From an uncultured virus (IMG/VR IMGVR_UViG_3300022555_000042) (Duplodnaviria > Heunggongvirae > Uroviricota > Caudoviricetes), in the IMG/VR virus record IMGVR_UViG_3300022555_000042: 20,000 nt of DNA. One strand, written 5' to 3'. Each line of letters opens with the position of its first letter. Within the stretch, counting starts at the first letter, position 1. Shown piece by piece: positions 364 to 15,106 of the stretch. The notes under the pieces are model-generated. The model saw only the letters and a list, made by a program, of their open reading frames with translations. It ran no database searches and was not told the origin of the DNA. The position numbers were made by a program, and so were the translations under genes.

Positions 364-995
364 TGCAGAACCATGAGACTATCGCCATCACCACTAAGGA
401 GTTTGATGATCTCCTTGAGTACAGTGCATCATTACCCACCGGAACCACTATTGGGAAACGATGGAAAGCCCATCGGGTGCACGATGGCCTGGACTATTGG
501 CTGATGGGTGAATATACACCCCACCTCGATCCAGAGATGGTTGGAATCAAGTGGCGGAAGATCATCGTCAACGAGATCGAGCAGGTCATCGGAGACTATC
601 AGATCGCAGATATCACGAAAATGTACCAGGGCGTGCCACCCCCCAAGTGCATGCAGGACAGCGTTGATTGGTGGTTTATGATCGGGCAGTTTGTTGCTGA
701 ATATAGCTCCCTTCCCGAGGTGCCGGCTCGGATCATCGTTCATGGATTTATGGCTGTAATGGTGGATTATACTCGTTTCCGAGAGGTCAGGTATGAGTAC
801 GCCAATGGGGATTTGATGCTGCTTGACCGAGAGGATTTGAGGATCACGAACGAGTTCGCCAACAAGAACGCGGTGGTGGCGGCATTGGAGTCGGCGATTG
901 CGAATATGGGATCAGCTCCGCGCATAGAGCTGTTGAAATGGCGTCTTCCTGGCGATGCCAGGGAAAGTGAATCGGGGTTCGAAGAAATTCGTTAG
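360..995 (+). CDS. hypothetical phage protein
   Basis: 211-aa ORF coupled to upstream stop; no recognised domain. Confidence 0.75.
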   Translation: MMQNHETIAITTKEFDDLLEYSASLPTGTTIGKRWKAHRVHDGLDYWLMGEYTPHLDPEMVGIKWRKIIVNEIEQVIGDYQIADITKMYQGVPPPKCMQDSVDWWFMIGQFVAEYSSLPEVPARIIVHGFMAVMVDYTRFREVRYEYANGDLMLLDREDLRITNEFANKNAVVAALESAIANMGSAPRIELLKWRLPGDARESESGFEEIR

Positions 996-1540
996 ACTCT
1001 ATCTAATTTGAAACCGGGAAACCGCAATTCTGGTGTTATGGTAATCTGCTGCACCAGTAGCGATGATGGTATTAGCCACGAGTTCTTATTCTGATCGAAC
1101 AGAAAGAAATAATCGACGTCGTCCAAGCTATATTGCACTTTTTCTCTGGTGCCATTACCCCACTGACGATGGAACACATTGAATATGAAATTGCCGCTGG
1201 GGTTGGCCAAGCCGGACGATTTTATCTGTACTCTCCTCCAGCCAGATCCAAAATCCACTAAGAGGTCATATGGTAGGCTAGCGTGAACTTGCGCCCACTC
1301 GAATCCAGCGAGGTCGCAGCGAAATTTTAAATACGATTCGGCAGCACGATCCAATTTACCATTGCCTCCGAATAGTATTAATGACTTCTCGCCATTTGGG
1401 ACAACCGAAGAGTTGCGTGACAGGCCTAGTCTCATTAACTGCCTGGACACAGTGGCGTGGTGCTTGTAGCCCAATGTTCTCGCTATTTTGCGAGCGCCAA
1501 GCCCCATTTTGAATAATTCGATAATTCGCTGGTCTTGCAT
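992..1540 (-). CDS. free-standing PD-(D/E)XK endonuclease (PDDEXK_5 / I-Ssp6803I-like) with N-terminal HTH
   Basis: HTH IIELFKMGLGARKIARTLG; catalytic pattern AAE...PYDLLVD...RVQIKS...YSLDDVDYF; start moved to MQDQ because the track start at 1576 lies in the tRNA. Confidence 0.82.
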   Translation of the reverse strand: MQDQRIIELFKMGLGARKIARTLGYKHHATVSRQLMRLGLSRNSSVVPNGEKSLILFGGNGKLDRAAESYLKFRCDLAGFEWAQVHASLPYDLLVDFGSGWRRVQIKSSGLANPSGNFIFNVFHRQWGNGTREKVQYSLDDVDYFFLFDQNKNSWLIPSSLLVQQITITPELRFPGFKLDRV

Positions 1541-1568
1541 ACACATTAGATTTGATCGGAATACATTC

Positions 1569-1649
1569 GCTCTCATGGCGGAATTGGCATACGCAGCGGT
1601 TTCAGATACCGTGCCGAATGGCTTGCAGGTTCGACTCCTGCTGAGAGCA
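1569..1649 (+). tRNA. tRNA-Leu(CAG)
   Basis: Acceptor GCTCTCA/TGAGAGC, anticodon arm GCGGT-TTCAGAT-ACCGT, variable arm, GGTTCGACTCC. Confidence 0.95.
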
Positions 1650-3230: not shown

Positions 3231-3254
3231 GCCGCCGTAGCTCAATGGCAGAGC
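3231..3254 (+). pseudogene. 5' fragment of an ancestral tRNA-Thr (acceptor 5' strand plus D arm)
   Basis: GCCGCCGTAGCTCAATGGCAGAGC, 23/24 identical to 3261-3284 but with the canonical D-loop GG. Confidence 0.85.
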
Positions 3255-3260
3255 CGGACT

Positions 3261-3332
3261 GCCGCCGTAGCTCAATAGCAGAGCTCCCGTCTTGTACACG
3301 GGTGGTTGTAGGTGCGAATCCTACCGGTGGCT
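3261..3332 (+). tRNA. tRNA-Thr(TGT), non-canonical A18/G55
   Basis: Acceptor GCCGCCG/CGGTGGC, anticodon arm CCCGT-CTTGTAC-ACGGG, T arm GTAGG-TGCGAAT-CCTAC. Confidence 0.9.
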
Positions 3333-3368: not shown

Positions 3369-4106
3369 ATGAGTTATGTTAGCACACAACGATGGCGAGT
3401 TAAGGCAAAACAGTGGCTCGTCAAGTACAGTGGGGGTAAATGTCAGTCATGTGGATATGATAAATATCACGGCAACTTTGCATGGCACCATTTGCGAGAT
3501 AAAAAGGCAGCCATGGCTAGGTTGATTAATAAGTGCTCATCGTGGAATGATATTATTGAGGAGGCGGATAAATGCGTGATGGTCTGTCATAATTGTCATG
3601 GTGAGATTCACGCTGGTATTAGGGCATGTCCAGAAGTTAATGTTGATAATCGCAAGGTGGCGATGGCAGCCATTGGGCCTCAGAGACCAATCCCAACTAG
3701 CCATAAATTCACATATTGCCACGAGTGCGGGAGGCCAACCAAGGGCAATAAATTCTGTTCATGGAAATGTCAATGCCAGTATGCCAATAAAATAAAGTGG
3801 CCTGATGACCTCGCTGGCTTGGTTGCGAACGAGACAATAGAAGTAGTCGCCGATAAGATGGGCATATCACCAGTGCTTGTTAACAAACGATTGCACGCCA
3901 AGAGGTGCAGGTGTGGCAAGCTAATGAGGCGTGGGAATACATGCCGCGAGTGTGCCCTTATTAAACGGGAGAAAATTACTTGGCCAGATAATCTCCCAGA
4001 GCTAATAAAGAATTCATCGTATCGGGCTGTCGCAATATCATTGGGTGTTTCAGACAAAGCTGTCGCAAAAAGGATAAAGAACCATTATGGGACGTTACAC
4101 GTATGA
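3369..4106 (+). CDS. HNH homing-type endonuclease with two C-terminal Zn-finger/HTH modules
   Basis: GGKCQSCGYD...WHH...KCVMVCHNCHGEIH; two repeats of Cys cluster + WPDxLxxL...HTH; track start 3312 lies in the tRNA so the ATG at 3369 is used. Confidence 0.88.
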   Translation: MSYVSTQRWRVKAKQWLVKYSGGKCQSCGYDKYHGNFAWHHLRDKKAAMARLINKCSSWNDIIEEADKCVMVCHNCHGEIHAGIRACPEVNVDNRKVAMAAIGPQRPIPTSHKFTYCHECGRPTKGNKFCSWKCQCQYANKIKWPDDLAGLVANETIEVVADKMGISPVLVNKRLHAKRCRCGKLMRRGNTCRECALIKREKITWPDNLPELIKNSSYRAVAISLGVSDKAVAKRIKNHYGTLHV

Positions 4107-4509: not shown

Positions 4510-4714
4510 ACTCCACTTCGAACTGGGCCAAAAATATCATCGGATGATCCGGGGGAGTATAGACAAGGCCACTTTTGTGGTGATCGTCTCTGAGAAGTTA
4601 CACTCGCCTATTTTAGAGGTGTATACTGTCACTGGGGATGAGTTGCTGGCAAAGTTCGGAGCTGCGATTTGGGGGCGGGCAGAGGTTTTGGCTTACCCCA
4701 ATGGGTTTAAGTAA
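4469..4714 (+). CDS. hypothetical protein (start uncertain)
   Basis: Fills the gap before tRNA-Leu(CAA); no motif. Confidence 0.4.
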   Translation: MMLGQESRIFPSNELHFELGQKYHRMIRGSIDKATFVVIVSEKLHSPILEVYTVTGDELLAKFGAAIWGRAEVLAYPNGFK

Positions 4715-4721
4715 AAATATC

Positions 4722-4803
4722 GCGGGTATGGTGGAATTGGCAGACACGCTAGTCTCAAGAACTAGTGGCGCAAGCCGTGCAGGTTCGACTCCTGCTATCC
4801 GCA
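4722..4803 (+). tRNA. tRNA-Leu(CAA)
   Basis: Acceptor GCGGGTA/TATCCGC, anticodon arm CTAGT-CTCAAGA-ACTAG, variable arm GGC-GCAA-GCC. Confidence 0.96.
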
Positions 4804-4844
4804 TTCCGGGTTATGCGCTGGCCACGAGCGTGATCGTGGCATTC

Positions 4845-4919
4845 GACCTCGTAGCTCAGTTGGATTAGAGCATCTGCCTTCTAAGCAGAGGGTCGTGGGT
4901 TCGAGCCCCACCGGGGTCA
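4845..4919 (+). tRNA. tRNA-Arg(TCT)
   Basis: Acceptor GACCTCG/CGGGGTC, anticodon arm TCTGC-CTTCTAA-GCAGA, GGTTCGAGCCC. Confidence 0.96.
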
Positions 4920-4921
4920 TT

Positions 4922-5209
4922 ATGAAATCAAAGCCCTGTATCAATGGATTTAGCAACCACCTTTACGAGGAGGGAAGGATATGTAAACGATGCGGAACGA
5001 CTAAGCGCGTTTACAAATCTTCATCTAAATGTAATCGCGCCCGTGCTGGGTATGGTCTTGATTATTATGTGCAAGGGTACTACGCATTTGGTAATGGGTT
5101 GAAGCGTGAGGCCAACCCACACCAGGGGGAACGGCGTGAGCAATGGTTTTTAGGGTGGGATGAGGGGAAAGCGGATACGCCCAGGCGTTGGGAAATTAAG
5201 CACCCGTAG
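4922..5209 (+). CDS. small protein with CxxC and Rmf/CrpP-like C-terminal motif
   Basis: YVQGYYAFGNG...NPH....REQWFLGWDEG resembles the ribosome modulation factor fold pattern; stop TAG lies in the tRNA remnant. Confidence 0.6.
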   Translation: MKSKPCINGFSNHLYEEGRICKRCGTTKRVYKSSSKCNRARAGYGLDYYVQGYYAFGNGLKREANPHQGERREQWFLGWDEGKADTPRRWEIKHP

Positions 5210-5227
5210 TCCAATTGGATAGGGCAC
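5200..5227 (+). pseudogene. 5' half of interrupted tRNA-Arg(TCG)
   Basis: GCACCCG-TA-GTCC-AATTGGATA-GGGC-A; GCACCCG pairs perfectly with CGGGTGC at 5972-5978. Confidence 0.85.
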
Positions 5228-5290
5228 ACTTTTCTGGTTCTATCTTAGTGTAGCCCAATTGGATAGAGTACTTAGTGTCAAATATAGTAT

Positions 5291-5872
5291 ATGAAAACAT
5301 GCAAATGTGGCGCTACGTTTCCGAATTGGATGACAATAGATGGCAAGCTCCATAATTTGGGTAGTCGAGTTCGGTGCCTTGATTGTCAGCCATTCAAGTC
5401 GCCCCGCCCCACTTGCTCTGTCGAGAATTTTAGGGCTAGGAAACGTAATAATACCCGCAATTGGCGCGATAAATTTGTAGAGGCGCATGGCGCTGACCCA
5501 GCTAATTTAATCCGAAGTAGGAATCGGCGAGCAATCCTTTGTTTAATTGGGTATAGATGCCAAAAGTGTGGCTATGATAAAACCATAACCAACATTGTGT
5601 TCCATCATCTTAAAGATAAGTCGTTTGAGTTGGGAAATAAAGCGTTTGGGCACCAATTCAAGAAGATTATTGCGGAACTTAGGAAATGTGTCGCTTATTG
5701 CCACAATTGTCATGGTGAATATCACCGTGGCCTAATTGACGATAAGATAGTTATAGATCATAATTGCCAATTAAATAAGGCTATTGATACAATATGTAAT
5801 TGCGGCGATTGGCTTGTGGTTCTTGATAAATTAAAACTTCCGCGAGATTACACTCTCCCTATGCGTCCCTGA
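5291..5872 (+). CDS. HNH homing-type endonuclease
   Basis: N-terminal CxC...CxxC; YRCQKCGYDK...VFHH...KCVAYCHNCHGEYH; same subfamily as 3369..4106. Confidence 0.88.
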   Translation: MKTCKCGATFPNWMTIDGKLHNLGSRVRCLDCQPFKSPRPTCSVENFRARKRNNTRNWRDKFVEAHGADPANLIRSRNRRAILCLIGYRCQKCGYDKTITNIVFHHLKDKSFELGNKAFGHQFKKIIAELRKCVAYCHNCHGEYHRGLIDDKIVIDHNCQLNKAIDTICNCGDWLVVLDKLKLPRDYTLPMRP

Positions 5873-5938
5873 TGCTCAATTGGATGGGCACCACTTTCCG
5901 AAGGTGGTATTTTGTGGGTTCGAATCCCACCAGGGACA
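5865..5938 (+). tRNA. tRNA-Arg(CCG), divergent (A8)
   Basis: Acceptor GTCCCTG/CAGGGAC, anticodon arm CCACT-TTCCGAA-GGTGG, T arm GTGGG-TTCGAAT-CCCAC. Confidence 0.9.
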
Positions 5939-5979
5939 TTCGAAGCTGGGTTGTGCGAGTTCGAGTCTCGCCGGGTGCA
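5939..5979 (+). pseudogene. 3' half of interrupted tRNA-Arg(TCG)
   Basis: T-TCG-AA-GCTGG-GTTGT-GCGAG-TTCGAGT-CTCGC-CGGGTGC-A: anticodon, 3' anticodon strand, complete T arm, acceptor 3' strand. Confidence 0.88.
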
Positions 5980-6219
5980 TTAGACAGTGGGTGAGGGGGC
6001 GGACATTTGGTGGTATTCTTCGTGACGTTTGCGATACCCCTCCGCTCCACCATTCTTAATATAGTATTTAAGGAGGATTTCTGGGTCTGAGACGTTGTAT
6101 CCCATGGCTTGGGAGCAGTACCACCGGTTGACCTCTCCGAGAGCTTCTTCGACTTGCTGCTGTAAGTGGTTTTGAAGTTCTGGCGGCGTCATATTCTCGT
6201 ACAATACGGCGATCTTCAT
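5980..6219 (-). CDS. hypothetical protein
   Basis: MKIAVLYE... 79 aa; stop abuts the tRNA remnant. Confidence 0.65.
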   Translation of the reverse strand: MKIAVLYENMTPPELQNHLQQQVEEALGEVNRWYCSQAMGYNVSDPEILLKYYIKNGGAEGYRKRHEEYHQMSAPSPTV

Positions 6220-6333
6220 ACCGGACTTTTGAATTATGTGGTATTTGCCGCTGCTGCCGCTGGACAGCACGGGCGGCCAGCAGCGAGGTAAGCCCACCGA
6301 TGAATAAATATAAGTAGGAGTTGTTGACTAATC

Positions 6334-6417
6334 GCTCGGGTGGCGAAATTGGCAGACGCGCAAGCTTGAGGTGCTTGTGGCCGCAAGGTCTTGCAGGTTC
6401 GACTCCTGTCCCGAGCA
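6334..6417 (+). tRNA. tRNA-Leu(GAG)
   Basis: Acceptor GCTCGGG/CCCGAGC, anticodon arm CAAGC-TTGAGGT-GCTTG, variable arm. Confidence 0.96.
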
Positions 6418-6431
6418 TTAAGGAGGTTATC

Positions 6432-7055
6432 ATGACTGCCGTATTATCAGAGCCTGTTCTGATCCTGAACCGCAACTATGTGGCGCAAGATTTCGTCACG
6501 GCGCGGAAGGCTGTCAACCTGCTCATGCAGGGTCGGGCCGAGGCCCTAGATATCGAAGGCGAAGAGCCTAATCGCAAGTACTTCACCTACGATTTCGAGT
6601 CCTGGAAGGAGCTGAGTGAGTTCAAGGCTGAGTTCGAGCGGGAGCAGCACATCTGGCTCCGGACCGTCAACCGGCACATCGCAGTCCCCTCCATTCTGCG
6701 GCTGACCCACTATGGGGAGTATCGGCGTCGGAAGGTTAAGCTCAACCGGCACAACCTCTTTGCGCGGGATGGCTTCCGGTGCCAGTACTGCGGCAAGAAG
6801 TTTAAGTCTTCGGATTTGACTTTGGACCACGTTATCCCCAAGAGCCGGGGCGGCAAGCTGGAGTGGCACAACCTGGTTTGTGCATGTGTAGCTTGCAATA
6901 CGCGCAAGTCCGCTCGGACGCCTCGGGAAGCCGGGATGCGGTTGGTGCGGGAGCCGAAGGCTCCGCCTTACCAGTTCCCCATCCCCAGAGTGCAGCGCGC
7001 CTCTTGGGCACATTTTGTGGATGTGGCTTACTGGCTTACGACTCTCCAAGAGTAA
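6432..7055 (+). CDS. HNH endonuclease (McrA-like / COG1403-type, VLILNxxY family)
   Basis: AAGGAGG RBS; VLILNRNY...RHNLFARDGFRCQYCG...LTLDHVIPKSRGG...WHNLVCACVACNTRK. Confidence 0.93.
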   Translation: MTAVLSEPVLILNRNYVAQDFVTARKAVNLLMQGRAEALDIEGEEPNRKYFTYDFESWKELSEFKAEFEREQHIWLRTVNRHIAVPSILRLTHYGEYRRRKVKLNRHNLFARDGFRCQYCGKKFKSSDLTLDHVIPKSRGGKLEWHNLVCACVACNTRKSARTPREAGMRLVREPKAPPYQFPIPRVQRASWAHFVDVAYWLTTLQE

Positions 7056-7091: not shown

Positions 7092-8003
7092 ATGCCTAAA
7101 ATCATAAAGAGTATAGCTTGGGTGGCCTCCGAAGTTACTCGGAGGCCACTCAACGCCATAGCGGAGGAAATAGGTGTTTCAGATGTTGGTTTAGGTCAGT
7201 TCTGTAAACGCCACAATATCCCAGTTTTCAATCCAAGTTACTTCCGCAGACTTGACTCCAAATCTGATGCTGGTGACTGTCCGCAATGCGGCACTAAGCG
7301 CAAAGTCCGTAAGTATATTAATAACTTGTGTGAAAGAGGATTTACCTATTGCAGAATATGTCCAAATTGTCACGCCAATCAGCAGCGTGAGGGGGTTCGC
7401 GGTCGTCGTAAAATAGAGGGCCAGTGCGTGGGGTGCGGTGGTGAGCCACAACCGGGACTATATTATTGTTCAAAATGCCACAATGTCTCAGTTAGCAATA
7501 AAAGGCTGAGAGCCAGATTGAGGAAAGATAAATTAGTTAAGATAATGGGTGGAAAGTGCAGCGAATGCGGTGGGCAGTTCCACAACGCCGCGTATGATTT
7601 TCATCACTTGTCTGATAAATTTAAAAGTATGAGTCACATGTTGGCTGGCAACTCTTGGGAAGCCACGCTGCTTGAGTCCAAGAAATGCCGCCTACTGTGT
7701 GCTGTTTGTCATAGGCTAGGGCATAAGTACCGGCTAATTGGTGATGTTCCATCTGAGTCTGGATTGTATAAGCGAGCATTTGTTCAGAACCGCAAGAAGC
7801 AGCCATGCCAGGACTGTGGCCTCCAATTTCACCCCACAGCGATGGAATTTGACCACCGTGACAGTCTGACCAAGTCATTTAATATATCTAATGTGGCGTG
7901 CCGTAGGTATACCATTGGCGAGTTGACTGCCGAAATAATAAAATGCGACTTAGTGTGTGCCAACTGTCACCGTGTTAGAACTTTCAGCCGGTTTGGCCGC
8001 TAG
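7092..8003 (+). CDS. endonuclease with N-terminal HTH, Zn fingers and two tandem HNH domains
   Basis: GGKCSECG..YDFHH..KCRLLCAVCHRLGH and PCQDCG..MEFDH..KCDLVCANCHRVRT. Confidence 0.88.
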   Translation: MPKIIKSIAWVASEVTRRPLNAIAEEIGVSDVGLGQFCKRHNIPVFNPSYFRRLDSKSDAGDCPQCGTKRKVRKYINNLCERGFTYCRICPNCHANQQREGVRGRRKIEGQCVGCGGEPQPGLYYCSKCHNVSVSNKRLRARLRKDKLVKIMGGKCSECGGQFHNAAYDFHHLSDKFKSMSHMLAGNSWEATLLESKKCRLLCAVCHRLGHKYRLIGDVPSESGLYKRAFVQNRKKQPCQDCGLQFHPTAMEFDHRDSLTKSFNISNVACRRYTIGELTAEIIKCDLVCANCHRVRTFSRFGR

Positions 8004-12361: not shown

Positions 12362-12661
12362 ATGTACCCAGATCCTAAATTAATATCCGAAACCATGGCG
12401 TTACTAGGCGTCGCCGACGAAGCCAAGTCTAGCGATGCCATTCTCCTACGCCAAGCTATTATCGCCGAGCTGGATGCCGCTAGCCTCTATGAACAAATGG
12501 CGGCCAGCACCAAGAACGAGAAGATCAAAAAGGTCTTCTTGGACGTGGCCAAGGAAGAGAAAGTACATGTGGGGGAATTCGAGGCGCTCTTGGGGGAGGC
12601 AGACAAAGAGCACGACAAAGCCATGGAGGATGGCACCTCGGAAGTCGCAAAAGTGAAGTGA
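12362..12661 (+). CDS. ferritin-like / rubrerythrin-family protein (two-helix half-ferritin type)
   Basis: LRQAIIAELDAASLYEQMA...VFLDVAKEEKVHVGEFEALL: ExxA..Y and EExxH diiron motifs; GAGG RBS. Confidence 0.88.
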   Translation: MYPDPKLISETMALLGVADEAKSSDAILLRQAIIAELDAASLYEQMAASTKNEKIKKVFLDVAKEEKVHVGEFEALLGEADKEHDKAMEDGTSEVAKVK

Positions 12662-12683: not shown

Positions 12684-12755
12684 TCAGGGTGGGGAATTTT
12701 GAGATCCCGGCCTCTCGGTTCCGGACCGAGCGCTCTGCCTCTGAGCTACACCCTG
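12684..12755 (-). tRNA. tRNA-Pro(CGG) with aberrant T arm
   Basis: Reverse complement CAGGGTG-TA-GCTC-AGAGGCA-GAGC-G-CTCGG-TCCGGAA-CCGAG-AGGCC-GGGAT-CTCAAAA-TTCCC-CACCCTG-A. Confidence 0.85.
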
Positions 12756-13531: not shown

Positions 13532-14506
13532 CTAGGCCTTAGTCTTCAGGTGTTTCTTGACGGCCTTGTCTGTCACCCCCAATAAGATACCAATTGCTCT
13601 CATTGAGCTCTGCGCAACCAGCTCGGCCAAATTGCTTGGCCATTTCGTTTTCCGCTTATAGAATGCAGAGCATACTACGCTGCAGTACTTTTTCCTTGCT
13701 GCTTCCCTCTGGTTCTGAAACTCGAATTGCTTTCCGCATTTACACATGCCGTGCCCAAAATTGGTTCTTGTCTTTGTTTTTGGTTGCCTGAACCACAATT
13801 TTTTCAGCCTATCTTGCCATTGGGCGGCCCCGGATTCGAACCGGGGATCTACTGGATGTAGGCCAGTCGGGTTAGCCGCTTCCCTAGCCGCCCGGATTAT
13901 GTGTTTCACTTTGTCTTGGTCCCATGCGATTTCACTCTCCCATATGTCAATTATTATCCACCCATGCTTCTCGAAGTAAATTTTAGCATTTCGATCTTGA
14001 ATCCTATTGTGTTTTTGTGGTTTCGTTAGGTCATCTTGATTTGGATAAAGCAGTGGGTTGGCGTGCCAGTAGTCACCATTTATCCTAAATATGGTTTTAT
14101 GCGTGAGGTCAACGAAGTCGCATAAATACCTTTGGATTGGGTATTGGTAAAATATATCCGCATTGACATCATCGCTTTGTTTGATTATCTCATGCATGCC
14201 GGGCGGAAACTTGACGCCGACGCCGCATTCATTCAGTAATATTCTGAACATTCGCTCTGGTTTTGTCCAAAATTTCCTGCTTGATATCGCCGATTTAATT
14301 GCGTTCGCGCTGCATTGCTCCGATGTCATATTTGCGACTTTGCATATGCCCTTGGAGACCGTCAATCTCCCAGCATCTGATTGTGATCGATGGCCTTTTA
14401 CCAATTTAGATATTCTGGCATTACTAGCGCCGGTCTTTAATGACACTTCTTTATAAGTCAGGCCGCCGTCATACAACTCAATTATTTTATCATCCATCTC
14501 GCTCAT
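13532..14506 (-). CDS. Vsr/DUF559-like endonuclease with N-terminal HTH and C-terminal Zn-finger/HTH, containing an in-frame tRNA-Val
   Basis: WTKPE...QYPIQRYLCDF...INGDYWHANP...QD....FEKHGWIIIDIWESEI; C-terminal KYCSVVC..KWPSNLAELV..LGVTDKAVKK homologous to 3369..4106; GGAG RBS. Confidence 0.88.
   Translation of the reverse strand: MSEMDDKIIELYDGGLTYKEVSLKTGASNARISKLVKGHRSQSDAGRLTVSKGICKVANMTSEQCSANAIKSAISSRKFWTKPERMFRILLNECGVGVKFPPGMHEIIKQSDDVNADIFYQYPIQRYLCDFVDLTHKTIFRINGDYWHANPLLYPNQDDLTKPQKHNRIQDRNAKIYFEKHGWIIIDIWESEIAWDQDKVKHIIRAAREAANPTGLHPVDPRFESGAAQWQDRLKKLWFRQPKTKTRTNFGHGMCKCGKQFEFQNQREAARKKYCSVVCSAFYKRKTKWPSNLAELVAQSSMRAIGILLGVTDKAVKKHLKTKA
13821..13893 (-). tRNA. tRNA-Val(TAC), divergent (C33, 3-bp D stem), nested in CDS
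   Basis: Reverse complement GGGCGGC-TA-GGG-AAGCGGCTAA-CCC-G-ACTGG-CCTACAT-CCAGT-AGATC-CCCGG-TTCGAAT-CCGGG-GCCGCCC-A; acceptor, anticodon and T stems perfectly paired. Confidence 0.88.
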
Positions 14507-14983: not shown

Positions 14984-14999
14984 CGCGCCGAGCAGGACT
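14984..14999 (-). pseudogene. 3' remnant of ancestral tRNA (Trp-like, G73)
   Basis: Reverse complement AGT-CCTGC-TCGGCGC-G; TCGGCGC pairs with GCGCCGG at 15100-15106. Confidence 0.75.
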
Positions 15000-15001
15000 A
15001 A

Positions 15002-15074
15002 CACGGTAGGAGAGGCTCGAACTCTCAAATGCCGGTTTTGGAGACCGGTGCTGTGCCGCTACAGCTTCTACCGT
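15002..15074 (-). tRNA. tRNA-Trp(CCA), divergent (A8/U14)
   Basis: Reverse complement ACGGTAG-AA-GCTG-TAGCGGCA-CAGC-A-CCGGT-CTCCAAA-ACCGG-CATTT-GAGAG-TTCGAGC-CTCTC-CTACCGT-G. Confidence 0.92.
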
Positions 15075-15083
15075 ATATCATTA

Positions 15084-15106
15084 TCTGCCAATTGAGCTAC
15101 CGGCGC
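15084..15106 (-). pseudogene. 5' remnant of ancestral tRNA (Trp-like)
   Basis: Reverse complement GCGCCGG-TA-GCTC-AATTGGCA-GA: canonical acceptor strand plus D arm. Confidence 0.8.

Follow-up and report, generated by a model that had tools for sequence, protein, structure and literature searches.

A phage tRNA-Arg(UCG) gene split around an HNH nuclease gene and a complete tRNA-Arg(CCG): a probable homing-endonuclease cassette

Nuclease genes interrupt or accompany other genes in several ways. Group I introns with homing-endonuclease ORFs occur in the anticodon loops of tRNA genes. In the mitochondrial atp6 of Allomyces, a mobile endonuclease ORF brings a replacement copy of its target and the old piece is pushed aside, and in Aeromonas phage Aeh1 the gene nrdA is split by mobE. 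Nucleases of phage tRNA clusters, of the F-Tfl kind, are reportedly HNH enzymes. SegB is a free-standing GIY-YIG homing endonuclease of the T-even tRNA gene cluster (PMC2330249; PMC13096335). The T4 enzyme cleaves inside tRNA genes and drives the inheritance of itself and the flanking tRNA genes (PMC2330249), and the T6 enzyme amplifies a 718-bp unit that comprises tRNA-Tyr and segB (PMC13096335).

The locus described here lies in a window of 20,000 nucleotides of an uncultured virus (IMG/VR IMGVR_UViG_3300022555_000042). The source phage is from freshwater, and the locus is located inside its tRNA gene cluster. Two matching halves of a tRNA-Arg(UCG) gene are separated by 712 nt (5227-5938), which accommodate an intact HNH ORF and a complete tRNA-Arg(CCG), the same two genes that the first-pass annotation had placed in the gap. 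The reading that a free-standing HNH homing-endonuclease cassette with a replacement tRNA was inserted into tRNA-Arg(UCG) has, in our estimate, a probability of roughly two in three. The features of the locus are as follows.

4922-5209, + strand: RMF-like ORF directly upstream (Pfam RMF PF04957, E 1.8e-6, 28.4 bits, cutoff 27.9)
5200-5226, + strand: 5' remnant of the old tRNA-Arg, made of GCACCCG (5200-5206), UA (5207-5208), the D arm (5209-5225) and A26 (5226)
5227-5243, + strand: 17-nt spacer in the place of the lost 5' strand of the anticodon stem, without a partner for GCTGG
5244-5275, + strand: second, orphan 5' stump of an Arg-like tRNA, with CTTAGTG in the acceptor position, UA, a D arm, A and CTTAG
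5291-5872, + strand: HNH endonuclease ORF of 193 aa, open and with an intact motif (phrog_2255, E 1.1e-17)
5865-5938, + strand: complete tRNA-Arg(CCG) (ARAGORN; Rfam tRNA, 49 bits, E 5.9e-9)
5939-5979, + strand: 3' remnant of the old tRNA-Arg(UCG), from U33, anticodon UCG, A37 and A38 to the discriminator A

The anatomy of the outer halves was read directly from the sequence. The D arm of the 5' half is GTCC/AATTGGATA/GGGC (5209-5225), which the D-arm scan recovers as well. The 3' half begins with TTCGAA (5939-5944) and GCTGG (5945-5949), the 3' strand of the anticodon stem, and continues through the variable loop GTTGT (5950-5954), the T arm GCGAG/TTCGAGT/CTCGC (5955-5971), also recovered by the T-arm scan, and the acceptor strand CGGGTGC (5972-5978) to the discriminator A 5979. 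The acceptor strands form seven of seven Watson-Crick pairs across the 712-nt gap, in agreement with the 7-bp stem and the distance of about 710 bp annotated previously. The other outer stems are undamaged as well (D stem 4/4 with one G.U, T stem 5/5). The 5' strand of the anticodon stem is lost: CCAGC, the partner of GCTGG, is missing 3' of the D arm, as had already been noticed, and about six target bases, tRNA positions 27-32, are absent from the old gene. The absence of decay in the outer halves fits a recent event or, equally, selection to keep the halves. Because the 5' anticodon-stem strand is missing and no intron model matches the locus (see below), the old tRNA-Arg(UCG) is most likely a disrupted, non-functional gene. 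The last three codons and the TAG stop of the RMF-like ORF lie inside the old 5' half, in which U8-A9-G10 provide the TAG.

The broken gene appears to be a tRNA-Arg. Each half is Arg-like in sequence, and a stem strand of 5 nt comes after the loop remnant UUCGAA, whose anticodon reads UCG; the BLAST E-values, taken singly, are weak. The 5' half matches 69 records, all across bases 1-27, and among the matches listed 29 of 40 rows are annotated as tRNA-Arg, 11 are unannotated and none has another isotype (E-values 0.6). Eight records cover at least 80% of the 3' half; six are tRNA-Arg, one is tRNA-Leu and one is unannotated (E-values 0.01 to 8). Within the window the outer halves are nearest to Arg tRNAs (53, 52 and 48 of 68 positions), and non-Arg tRNAs reach at most 44/68. 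The halves belong together and are both of the Arg kind, as assigned earlier. The first 10 and last 20 bases of the outer halves also occur exactly in a tRNA-Arg(GCG) at a non-syntenic site of a bacterial-looking metagenome contig.

The insert starts with the spacer and the orphan stump, whose D arm is GCCC/AATTGGATA/GAGT and which ends 15 nt upstream of the HNH start codon. The stump, which the first-pass annotation does not mention, shares 16 of 17 positions of its D-arm region with the old 5' half and likewise with tRNA-Arg(ACG). It is flanked by a 7-nt direct repeat, CTTAGTG, and the partner search of the window detected no 3' partner preceded by a T arm. The stump is likely the fossil of an earlier host tRNA that was carried along with the cassette.

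The HNH ORF is the only one of the insert ORFs of at least 60 aa with a family match. Its match to the Pfam AI2M-like HNH family (E 0.0014) is below the cutoff; the cysteine pairs C90/C93 and C137/C140 together with H105, H106, H141 and H145 are invariant between it and two paralogs in the window, and it is predicted to contain an intact site-specific nuclease domain. The TGA stop codon of the ORF forms bases 6-8 of tRNA-Arg(CCG) and requires the unusual A8 of this tRNA. At its other end, the discriminator A5938 directly adjoins U33 of the old loop without a spacer, which bears out the earlier statement that the insert ends at the discriminator. The tRNA-Arg(CCG) has no close match; rows with at least 80% coverage are 74-76% identical. 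With the old halves it shares 48 of 68 positions. Therefore, the proposal of the first-pass annotation that the anticodon changed from TCG to CCG has to be reworded: another tRNA now stands in for the old one.

Under the cassette reading, the HNH family nuclease would cut tRNA gene DNA at or near the region of the D arm and anticodon arm, and the break would be repaired from a copy bearing the nuclease gene and an adjacent tRNA, so that HNH and tRNA would arrive as one unit. The approximately six bases at positions 27-32, of which the loss itself is seen, would have disappeared during the event. The order of events could be the arrival of a single cassette, or of HNH first and the tRNA later. 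By standard wobble rules, tRNA-Arg(CCG) and tRNA-Arg(ACG) still read all CGN codons; because this coverage is kept, the loss of the old gene is cheap, and a selfish element can persist. In the 19 ORFs of the window, CGG is the most used Arg codon (54), CGC is just behind (53) and CGA is the rarest (27). Probably, the nuclease gene is transcribed together with the tRNAs, and 5' processing of the tRNA would then trim the nuclease mRNA at the stop codon, by analogy with what has been proposed for T4 segB.

The association with tRNA genes recurs in the relatives of the HNH protein that were examined. A tblastn search found distant relatives in 166 phage records, all with less than 60% identity and, in the best 40 of 166, with 26-42% identity. 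Ten loci among these 40 were examined, one per phage group; they were chosen by us, are distant, and two of them showed tRNAs under the match before selection. In all ten loci ARAGORN places a tRNA no farther than about 510 nt from the HNH gene, and in eight no farther than 160 nt; in three of the ten an orphan tRNA 3' piece begins at most 25 nt from the HNH stop codon. In Bacillus phage Anthony, the HNH gene is located between matching 5' and 3' tRNA pieces with the acceptors GGGGATA and TATCCTC; the entire ORF occupies the place of the anticodon arm, and the 5' stump lies right before the HNH start, as does the inner stump 5244-5275. Bastille has, in this order, a full tRNA-Asn, the HNH gene and an orphan tRNA-Asn 3' part that starts from its anticodon loop. 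In Acinetobacter phage Aci05, the orphan 3' piece begins about 10 nt past the HNH stop. Outside the ARAGORN tRNAs, the ten loci contain 20 orphan T arms, of which at least three fall in GenBank-annotated tRNAs missed by ARAGORN, compared with 2.3 +/- 1.5 T-arm motifs in 200 shuffles.

Two further tRNA fragments or nests, a recurrence that the first-pass annotation does not report, are present in the window, which according to Rfam contains 12 tRNAs (10 called by ARAGORN, one missed by it and one cut by the window start).

3231-3260, + strand: Thr-like tRNA 5' stump, 23/24 identical to tRNA-Thr(UGU), a complete gene beginning at the adjoining base, 3261
14984-15106, - strand: second nested tRNA, a tRNA-Trp(CCA) between the halves of another tRNA

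The Thr stump has no 3' partner in the window by the partner search, and an HNH ORF paralogous to that of the insert (3369-4106; paralog identity 31-33%) is located downstream of tRNA-Thr(UGU). In the second nest, the outer 5' piece (15106-15084) consists of GCGCCGG, UA, GCTC, AATTGGCA and GA and is followed by a 9-nt linker, the complete tRNA-Trp(CCA) (15074-15002; Rfam, 51.2 bits), a 2-nt linker and the outer 3' piece (14999-14984) of AGU, CCUGC, UCGGCGC and G. Its outer acceptor strands are paired at 7/7 positions, one of them G.U. The Trp nest contains no nuclease ORF, so a tRNA can become nested in the absence of a resident nuclease gene.

A bolder extension of the cassette reading, which we put forward tentatively and consider rather doubtful, is that the HNH gene and the tRNA overlapping its stop codon are a self-compensating homing unit. 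The HNH enzyme would target the anticodon-arm DNA of paralogous tRNA-Arg genes, and its own tRNA would be immune and would make good the loss. Such cassettes would rewrite the anticodons of phages, in this case from UCG to CCG, and stumps nested within one another (5244-5275 inside 5200-5979) would be the traces of a series of hops between tRNA genes. A bolder side reading is that the outer halves may be a tRNA-like scaffold for processing the nuclease transcript.

A relative with an empty, nuclease-less site was not found in the viral, genome and metagenome contigs searched. The outer halves, as an exact 30-mer and 27-mer, are absent from the viral contigs, and the gapped pattern of their first 10 and last 20 bases has no hit in viral or genome contigs and one in metagenome contigs, the non-syntenic tRNA-Arg(GCG) mentioned above. 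Protein scans of the viral contigs yielded one irrelevant partial match for the RMF-like ORF and none for HNH or the neighbouring 1088-aa protein; in a word-based protein search, the latter two matched only the window's own proteins. Only tRNA-sized matches resulted from a blastn search of 4600-6600 against phages. The contigs of public runs all carry the insert, and none skips it or joins across it; the three joints listed are short-sided and derive from other tRNAs. Among the public runs listed for the sequence there is no RNA data set.

Among the rival explanations, the one that survives best, though unlikely, is that the nest is a scar of recombination or break repair in the repetitive tRNA array, unrelated to the resident HNH gene, which would be a passenger. 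The scar could stem from illegitimate recombination between the D and T arms that paralogous tRNA genes have in common, or from cuts made in trans by other nucleases of the phage. The Trp nest, with the same architecture and no nuclease ORF, speaks for this possibility, as do the D loops AATTGGAT(A) common to four Arg-like sequences and the presence of at least four other nuclease-like ORFs in the window (992-1576, 3369-4106, 6429-7055 and 7092-8003). However, exchange between homologous arms should yield hybrid tRNAs rather than a complete tRNA nested with non-tRNA linkers, and relatives of the HNH gene occur repeatedly at tRNA break points in other phages.

It is somewhat less probable still that the outer halves have been kept for a role at the RNA level, with their acceptor, D and T arms folded around the insert into a leader-trailer helix or a scaffold resembling a tRNA. 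Such a structure would guide RNase P and the processing of the 3' end, or would stabilise or limit the nuclease mRNA, and processing could release a 41-nt tRNA 3' half starting at U33. This model is consistent with the intactness of every outer stem, with the complete ORF that replaces the anticodon arm in Bacillus phage Anthony, and with the control of segB via tRNA processing that has been proposed for T4 (PMC2330249). A partition-function fold of 5200-5979 gives the seven acceptor pairs probabilities of 0.87-1.0; however, the folded segment was cut exactly at its complementary ends, which favours the acceptor helix. Moreover, an RNase P cut at 5200 would strip the stop codon from the upstream RMF-like ORF, and the hairpin over the HNH start does not stand out from shuffled sequences (z -1.13). 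The scan for promoters and terminators remained at chance level, and at 5989-6055 a weak tmRNA-like match with a hairpin falls short of significance (E 0.087 when the whole window is searched, z -1.74).

Very improbable is a working interrupted tRNA-Arg(UCG) with the 712-nt insert as an intron that splices itself out or is excised by enzymes of the phage or the host. The fully complementary acceptor strands, the intact D and T arms and the known group I introns with nuclease ORFs in anticodon loops are what such a gene would offer. However, the Rfam models of group I and group II introns, including the group I check that had been suggested for the insert, match neither in 4600-6600 at E<=10 nor in the whole window at E<=1; the insert ends in A5938 and not in G, and the ORF and the inner tRNA take up all but 64 nt of it (5227-5290). 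With introns of up to 1000 nt allowed, ARAGORN reports the inner tRNA only. Since the CCAGC strand is absent, no join rebuilds the cloverleaf. When the halves were joined in a script, ARAGORN called tRNAs only at a relaxed threshold, at nearly any join point and with many anticodons, which makes the joins uninformative. A group I intron in the tRNA was therefore rejected for want of a ribozyme core, a restored cloverleaf and a terminal G, and the earlier judgement that the insert is not a spliceable intron holds. The HNH gene sits among tRNA genes and not in a self-splicing intron. An integrative element with att duplication was also rejected, because no insert ORF of at least 60 aa matches an integrase family and the two outer pieces complement each other instead of being repeated directly.

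Contigs from four public runs of two studies cross both junctions, which excludes an assembly artefact: that of run X2 spans 4672-5920 and those of run X4 4948-5557 and 5849-6054 (0 differences each), those of run X5 4866-5350 and 5720-6210 (3 differences), and that of run X6, from the second study, 5925-6075. On the + strand, the old 3' half is the sole T arm outside a called tRNA, the tRNA cut by the window start aside; D-arm-like motifs have a density of about 1.5 per kb, and a G.U-tolerant pattern for the partner of GCACCCG occurs at seven places in the window, of which 5972 alone follows a T arm. That the split tRNA is a chimera of a repeat-rich, misassembly-prone array or a chance resemblance has an almost negligible probability, given junctions crossed with 0-3 differences and about 1e-4 paired D-arm and T-arm fragments expected within 1 kb (our own arithmetic, at a 7-mer match rate of 6e-5).

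Codon usage or escape from host defences that cut tRNAs is the usual explanation for the tRNA sets of phages. If cassettes do replace paralogous tRNA genes, a third force, that of selfish elements, would act on phage anticodons, and many of the tRNA fragments and the poorly scored or missed tRNAs of phage arrays would be accounted for. Such fragments mislead automatic annotation. The window is a clean natural example, in which both halves are preserved and two more fossils are nearby. A phage tRNA split around a nuclease gene and a replacement tRNA was not found described in the full-text literature searched, which covers only a minority of the subscription journals.

Rather than a novel type of intron, the split tRNA is a tidy variation on behaviour already known from phage nucleases. 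In common with the group I introns of tRNA genes, it has a nuclease ORF between tRNA halves with matching acceptors, near the anticodon. Unlike them, it has neither a ribozyme core nor a terminal G, it lacks part of the exon, and its insert includes an entire tRNA gene. The likeness to Allomyces atp6 and Aeh1 nrdA is that a selfish element offsets the damage of its insertion, or that the host gene survives in pieces; however, those targets are protein genes, whereas here the target is a tRNA, compensated by a whole tRNA with a different anticodon. The phage tRNA-cluster nucleases cited in PMC2330249 have ORFs within the tRNA cluster, as here. SegB and the HNH protein are likewise both encoded among phage tRNA genes, and SegB cuts inside tRNA genes and mobilises or amplifies itself with an adjacent tRNA, in a manner to which the HNH cassette may be likened. 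The end of the SegB ORF coincides with the start of a tRNA-Arg gene, as does the end of the HNH ORF, so that tRNA processing would clip the SegB mRNA. By contrast, SegB is a GIY-YIG enzyme and the protein here has an HNH (His-Me finger) motif. SegB is described as recognising a T-arm motif and cutting near the 3' ends of tRNAs, whereas the break here is in the region of the D arm and anticodon arm. A target tRNA split around the cassette is not part of the descriptions of SegB considered here; in the phage studied here, the target is split.

The 712-nt insert (5227–5938) in the broken tRNA-Arg(UCG) is best explained as a free-standing homing-endonuclease cassette, a reading backed by an intact nuclease gene that is closely coupled to a complete tRNA, a split target, and a protein family located at tRNA break points. 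The old tRNA retains a 5' half at 5200–5226 (GCACCCG-UA-GUCC-AAUUGGAUA-GGGC-A) and a 3' half at 5939–5979 (UUCGAA-GCUGG-GUUGU-GCGAG-UUCGAGU-CUCGC-CGGGUGC-A). Pairing between the acceptor strands of the two halves is complete (7/7), and neither the D stem nor the T stem is disrupted. With U33 at 5939, as judged from the loop remnant, the old anticodon was UCG. Positions 27–32 (the CCAGC strand together with base 32) have been lost. Both ARAGORN and Rfam place the 3' end of the inner tRNA-Arg(CCG) at 5938; therefore, its discriminator directly touches the old U33. The old 5' half also supplies, as U8-A9-G10, the stop codon of an upstream RMF-like ORF (4922–5209; Pfam RMF E-value 1.8e-6, just above the cutoff). 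Ahead of the complete tRNA, the insert contains:

5227–5243: spacer
5244–5275: 5' stump of a second Arg-like tRNA, absent from the first-pass annotation
5291–5872: HNH ORF, beginning 15 nt past the stump; its TGA stop forms bases 6–8 of tRNA-Arg(CCG), which results in an unusual A8 in this tRNA

The D arm of the stump has 16/17 identity to that of the outer half and to that of tRNA-Arg(ACG), and no 3' partner for the stump was found in the window. A 7-nt direct repeat, CTTAGTG, flanks this D arm.

Judged by sequence comparison, both outer halves are Arg-like. All 69 phage records matching the 5' half align to bases 1–27, and among the 40 matches listed, 29 are annotated as tRNA-Arg and none as another isotype. 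Eight records cover at least 80% of the 3' half (six tRNA-Arg, one tRNA-Leu, one unannotated), with weak E-values of 0.01 to 8. The halves agree with the tRNA-Arg genes of the window in 53/68 (ACG), 52/68 (UCU) and 48/68 (CCG) positions, and with its non-Arg tRNAs in at most 44/68. One metagenome tRNA-Arg(GCG) has its exact first 10 and last 20 bases in common with the halves. The Arg-like matches on both sides uphold the first-pass assignment of the halves to one tRNA family, against which matches to different families would have spoken.

A tblastn search with the HNH protein against 50,697 phage records identified distant relatives in 166, all below 60% identity, with 26–42% identity among the 40 matches listed. 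Ten of these 40 were fetched, chosen across phage groups; for two, tRNAs under the match were evident before the choice was made. All ten lie in tRNA arrays, with the nearest ARAGORN tRNA within about 510 nt in every case and within 160 nt in eight. In Bacillus phage Anthony (locus L007, MF498901.1; 1458–2029), an annotated HNH gene is positioned between matching tRNA pieces with pairing acceptors. On the 5' side, a stump (GGGGATA and D arm) precedes the ribosome-binding site and ATG; on the 3' side lie a T arm and TATCCTC. The ORF stands in place of the whole anticodon arm, and the split tRNA is unannotated in the record. In phage Bastille (locus L008, NC_018856.1; 1305–1975), a full tRNA-Asn precedes the HNH gene, which is followed by an orphan 3' part of tRNA-Asn that begins with the anticodon loop. 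The Bastille tRNA-Asn annotated at 2067–2134 has no ARAGORN call. An orphan 3' piece begins about 10 nt past the HNH stop in Acinetobacter phage Aci05, and the HNH ORF end overlaps tRNA-Gly in Pseudomonas phage M5.1, comparable to the tRNA-Arg overlap in the window. The ten loci contain 20 orphan T arms outside ARAGORN tRNAs, at least three of which fall in GenBank-annotated tRNAs that ARAGORN missed, compared with a shuffled expectation (200 shuffles) of 2.3 ± 1.5 T-arm motifs. Left break points cluster where the D arm ends (positions 23–27, possibly 31); right break points are scattered between the anticodon loop and the T loop. Two huge-phage loci (L009, 2111–2379, minus strand; L011, 1122–1336) each contain a D-arm piece and a T-arm piece, about 230 and about 140 nt apart respectively, whose acceptor strands are fully complementary; these could be intron-bearing or split tRNAs.

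Broken tRNAs recur within the window:

3231–3260: Thr-like tRNA 5' stump of 30 nt, the first 24 bases 23/24 identical to tRNA-Thr(UGU)
15074–15002, minus strand: complete tRNA-Trp(CCA) nested in a broken tRNA (nest 14984–15106)

The complete tRNA-Thr(UGU) begins at 3261, the base right after the Thr-like stump, and a paralogous HNH ORF (3369–4106) follows 36 nt past it; no 3' piece matching the stump was found. The outer 5' piece of the Trp nest (15106–15084) comprises the acceptor strand, half of the D arm, and the D loop. The outer 3' piece (14999–14984) comprises the T-loop end, a CCUGC T-stem strand typical of the tRNAs of this phage, the acceptor strand, and the discriminator. The outer acceptors, GCGCCGG and TCGGCGC, pair in 7/7 positions with one G.U. 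The Trp nest contains no nuclease gene, which favors the alternative that such breaks are repair scars without a link to the resident HNH; this explanation is unlikely, given the support for the cassette from the nuclease family at tRNA break points.

The source of the window is an uncultured freshwater phage, and the public runs that contain the stretch are lake and freshwater metagenomes. Contigs bearing its HNH protein and the 1088-aa neighbor reach up to 215 kb. Rfam matches 12 tRNAs in the 20 kb, ten of which are also found by ARAGORN, and these tRNAs are interspersed with at least five nuclease-like ORFs. Three of the ORFs (3369–4106, 5291–5872, and 7092–8003) are paralogs of one HNH family with 31–33% identity and invariant Cys pairs and His residues. 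Other features are:

1–71: tRNA-Leu(UAG), 5' end lost beyond the edge of the window (Rfam 32 bits)
12362–12661: small rubrerythrin/ferritin-like ORF adjoining the minus-strand tRNA group (Pfam Rubrerythrin E-value 2.3e-10)
12684–12755, minus strand: tRNA missed by ARAGORN (Rfam 49.1 bits)
13532–14506, minus strand: 324-aa ORF with tRNA-Val(UAC) (13821–13893) in frame inside
18288: P2-I-like tail protein (family match)

The tRNA at 12684–12755 has the anticodon loop UCCGGAA, C at position 33 and an odd T loop, and could be read as Pro(CGG) or as a shifted Arg(CCG). The 324-aa ORF has a DUF559-like part on one side of tRNA-Val and a C-terminal HNH PHROG match on the other, and is probably two genes or a chance read-through. 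Just past the old 3' half, 5996–6052 forms an 8-bp GC-rich helix followed by ACCA, weakly tmRNA-like; the match is not significant (E-value 0.087 in a whole-window search, fold z −1.74).

An RNA-level role of the preserved halves is improbable; their ends pair with a probability of 0.87–1.0 in the fold, but the fold was cut at the pairing ends, which makes the test biased. A real intron is very improbable. No group I or II intron was matched at E ≤ 10 locally or at E ≤ 1 across the whole window, and ARAGORN, with introns of up to 1000 nt allowed, identified the inner tRNA only. The last base of the insert is A, only 64 of its 712 nt lie outside the ORF and inner tRNA, and no partner strand for GCUGG was found near either junction. 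The intron reading was rejected on these grounds, as the first-pass annotation had anticipated in describing the insert as not spliceable. From the missing intron match and GCUGG partner, we infer on structural grounds that the old tRNA-Arg(UCG) gene is dead. Least probable of all is an artefact or chance, because contigs of public metagenome runs from two studies (X2, X4 and X5 in the first, X6 in the second) span the left, right, or both junctions with 0–3 differences, none of the matching contigs skips the insert, and the chance expectation for paired D-arm and T-arm fragments within 1 kb is about 1e-4 (arithmetic from motif and partner scans).

As a homing-endonuclease cassette, the HNH would cut tRNA gene DNA near the D or anticodon arm, and repair would copy nuclease and tRNA as a single unit; the stump at 5244–5275 may be a relic of a previous host tRNA that moved with the cassette. 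The cost to the phage of losing the old tRNA is probably small, because tRNA-Arg(ACG) (2040–2113) and the new CCG tRNA cover CGN codons under standard wobble rules. Among Arg codons in the window, CGG is used most, just above CGC, and CGA is the rarest.

Nucleases that reside in and cut phage tRNA genes are already known. Among the papers retrieved by full-text searches, none describes a nuclease plus a complete replacement tRNA nested between the two preserved halves of a paralogous tRNA gene. For phage T4, SegB is described as cutting inside tRNA genes and driving the inheritance of itself and neighboring tRNA genes (PMC2330249), and for phage T6 as amplifying a 718-bp unit of tRNA-Tyr and segB (PMC13096335). 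In the same T4 account, the end of the SegB ORF coincides with the start of tRNA-Arg (PMC2330249); likewise, the end of the HNH ORF in the window overlaps the start of tRNA-Arg(CCG).
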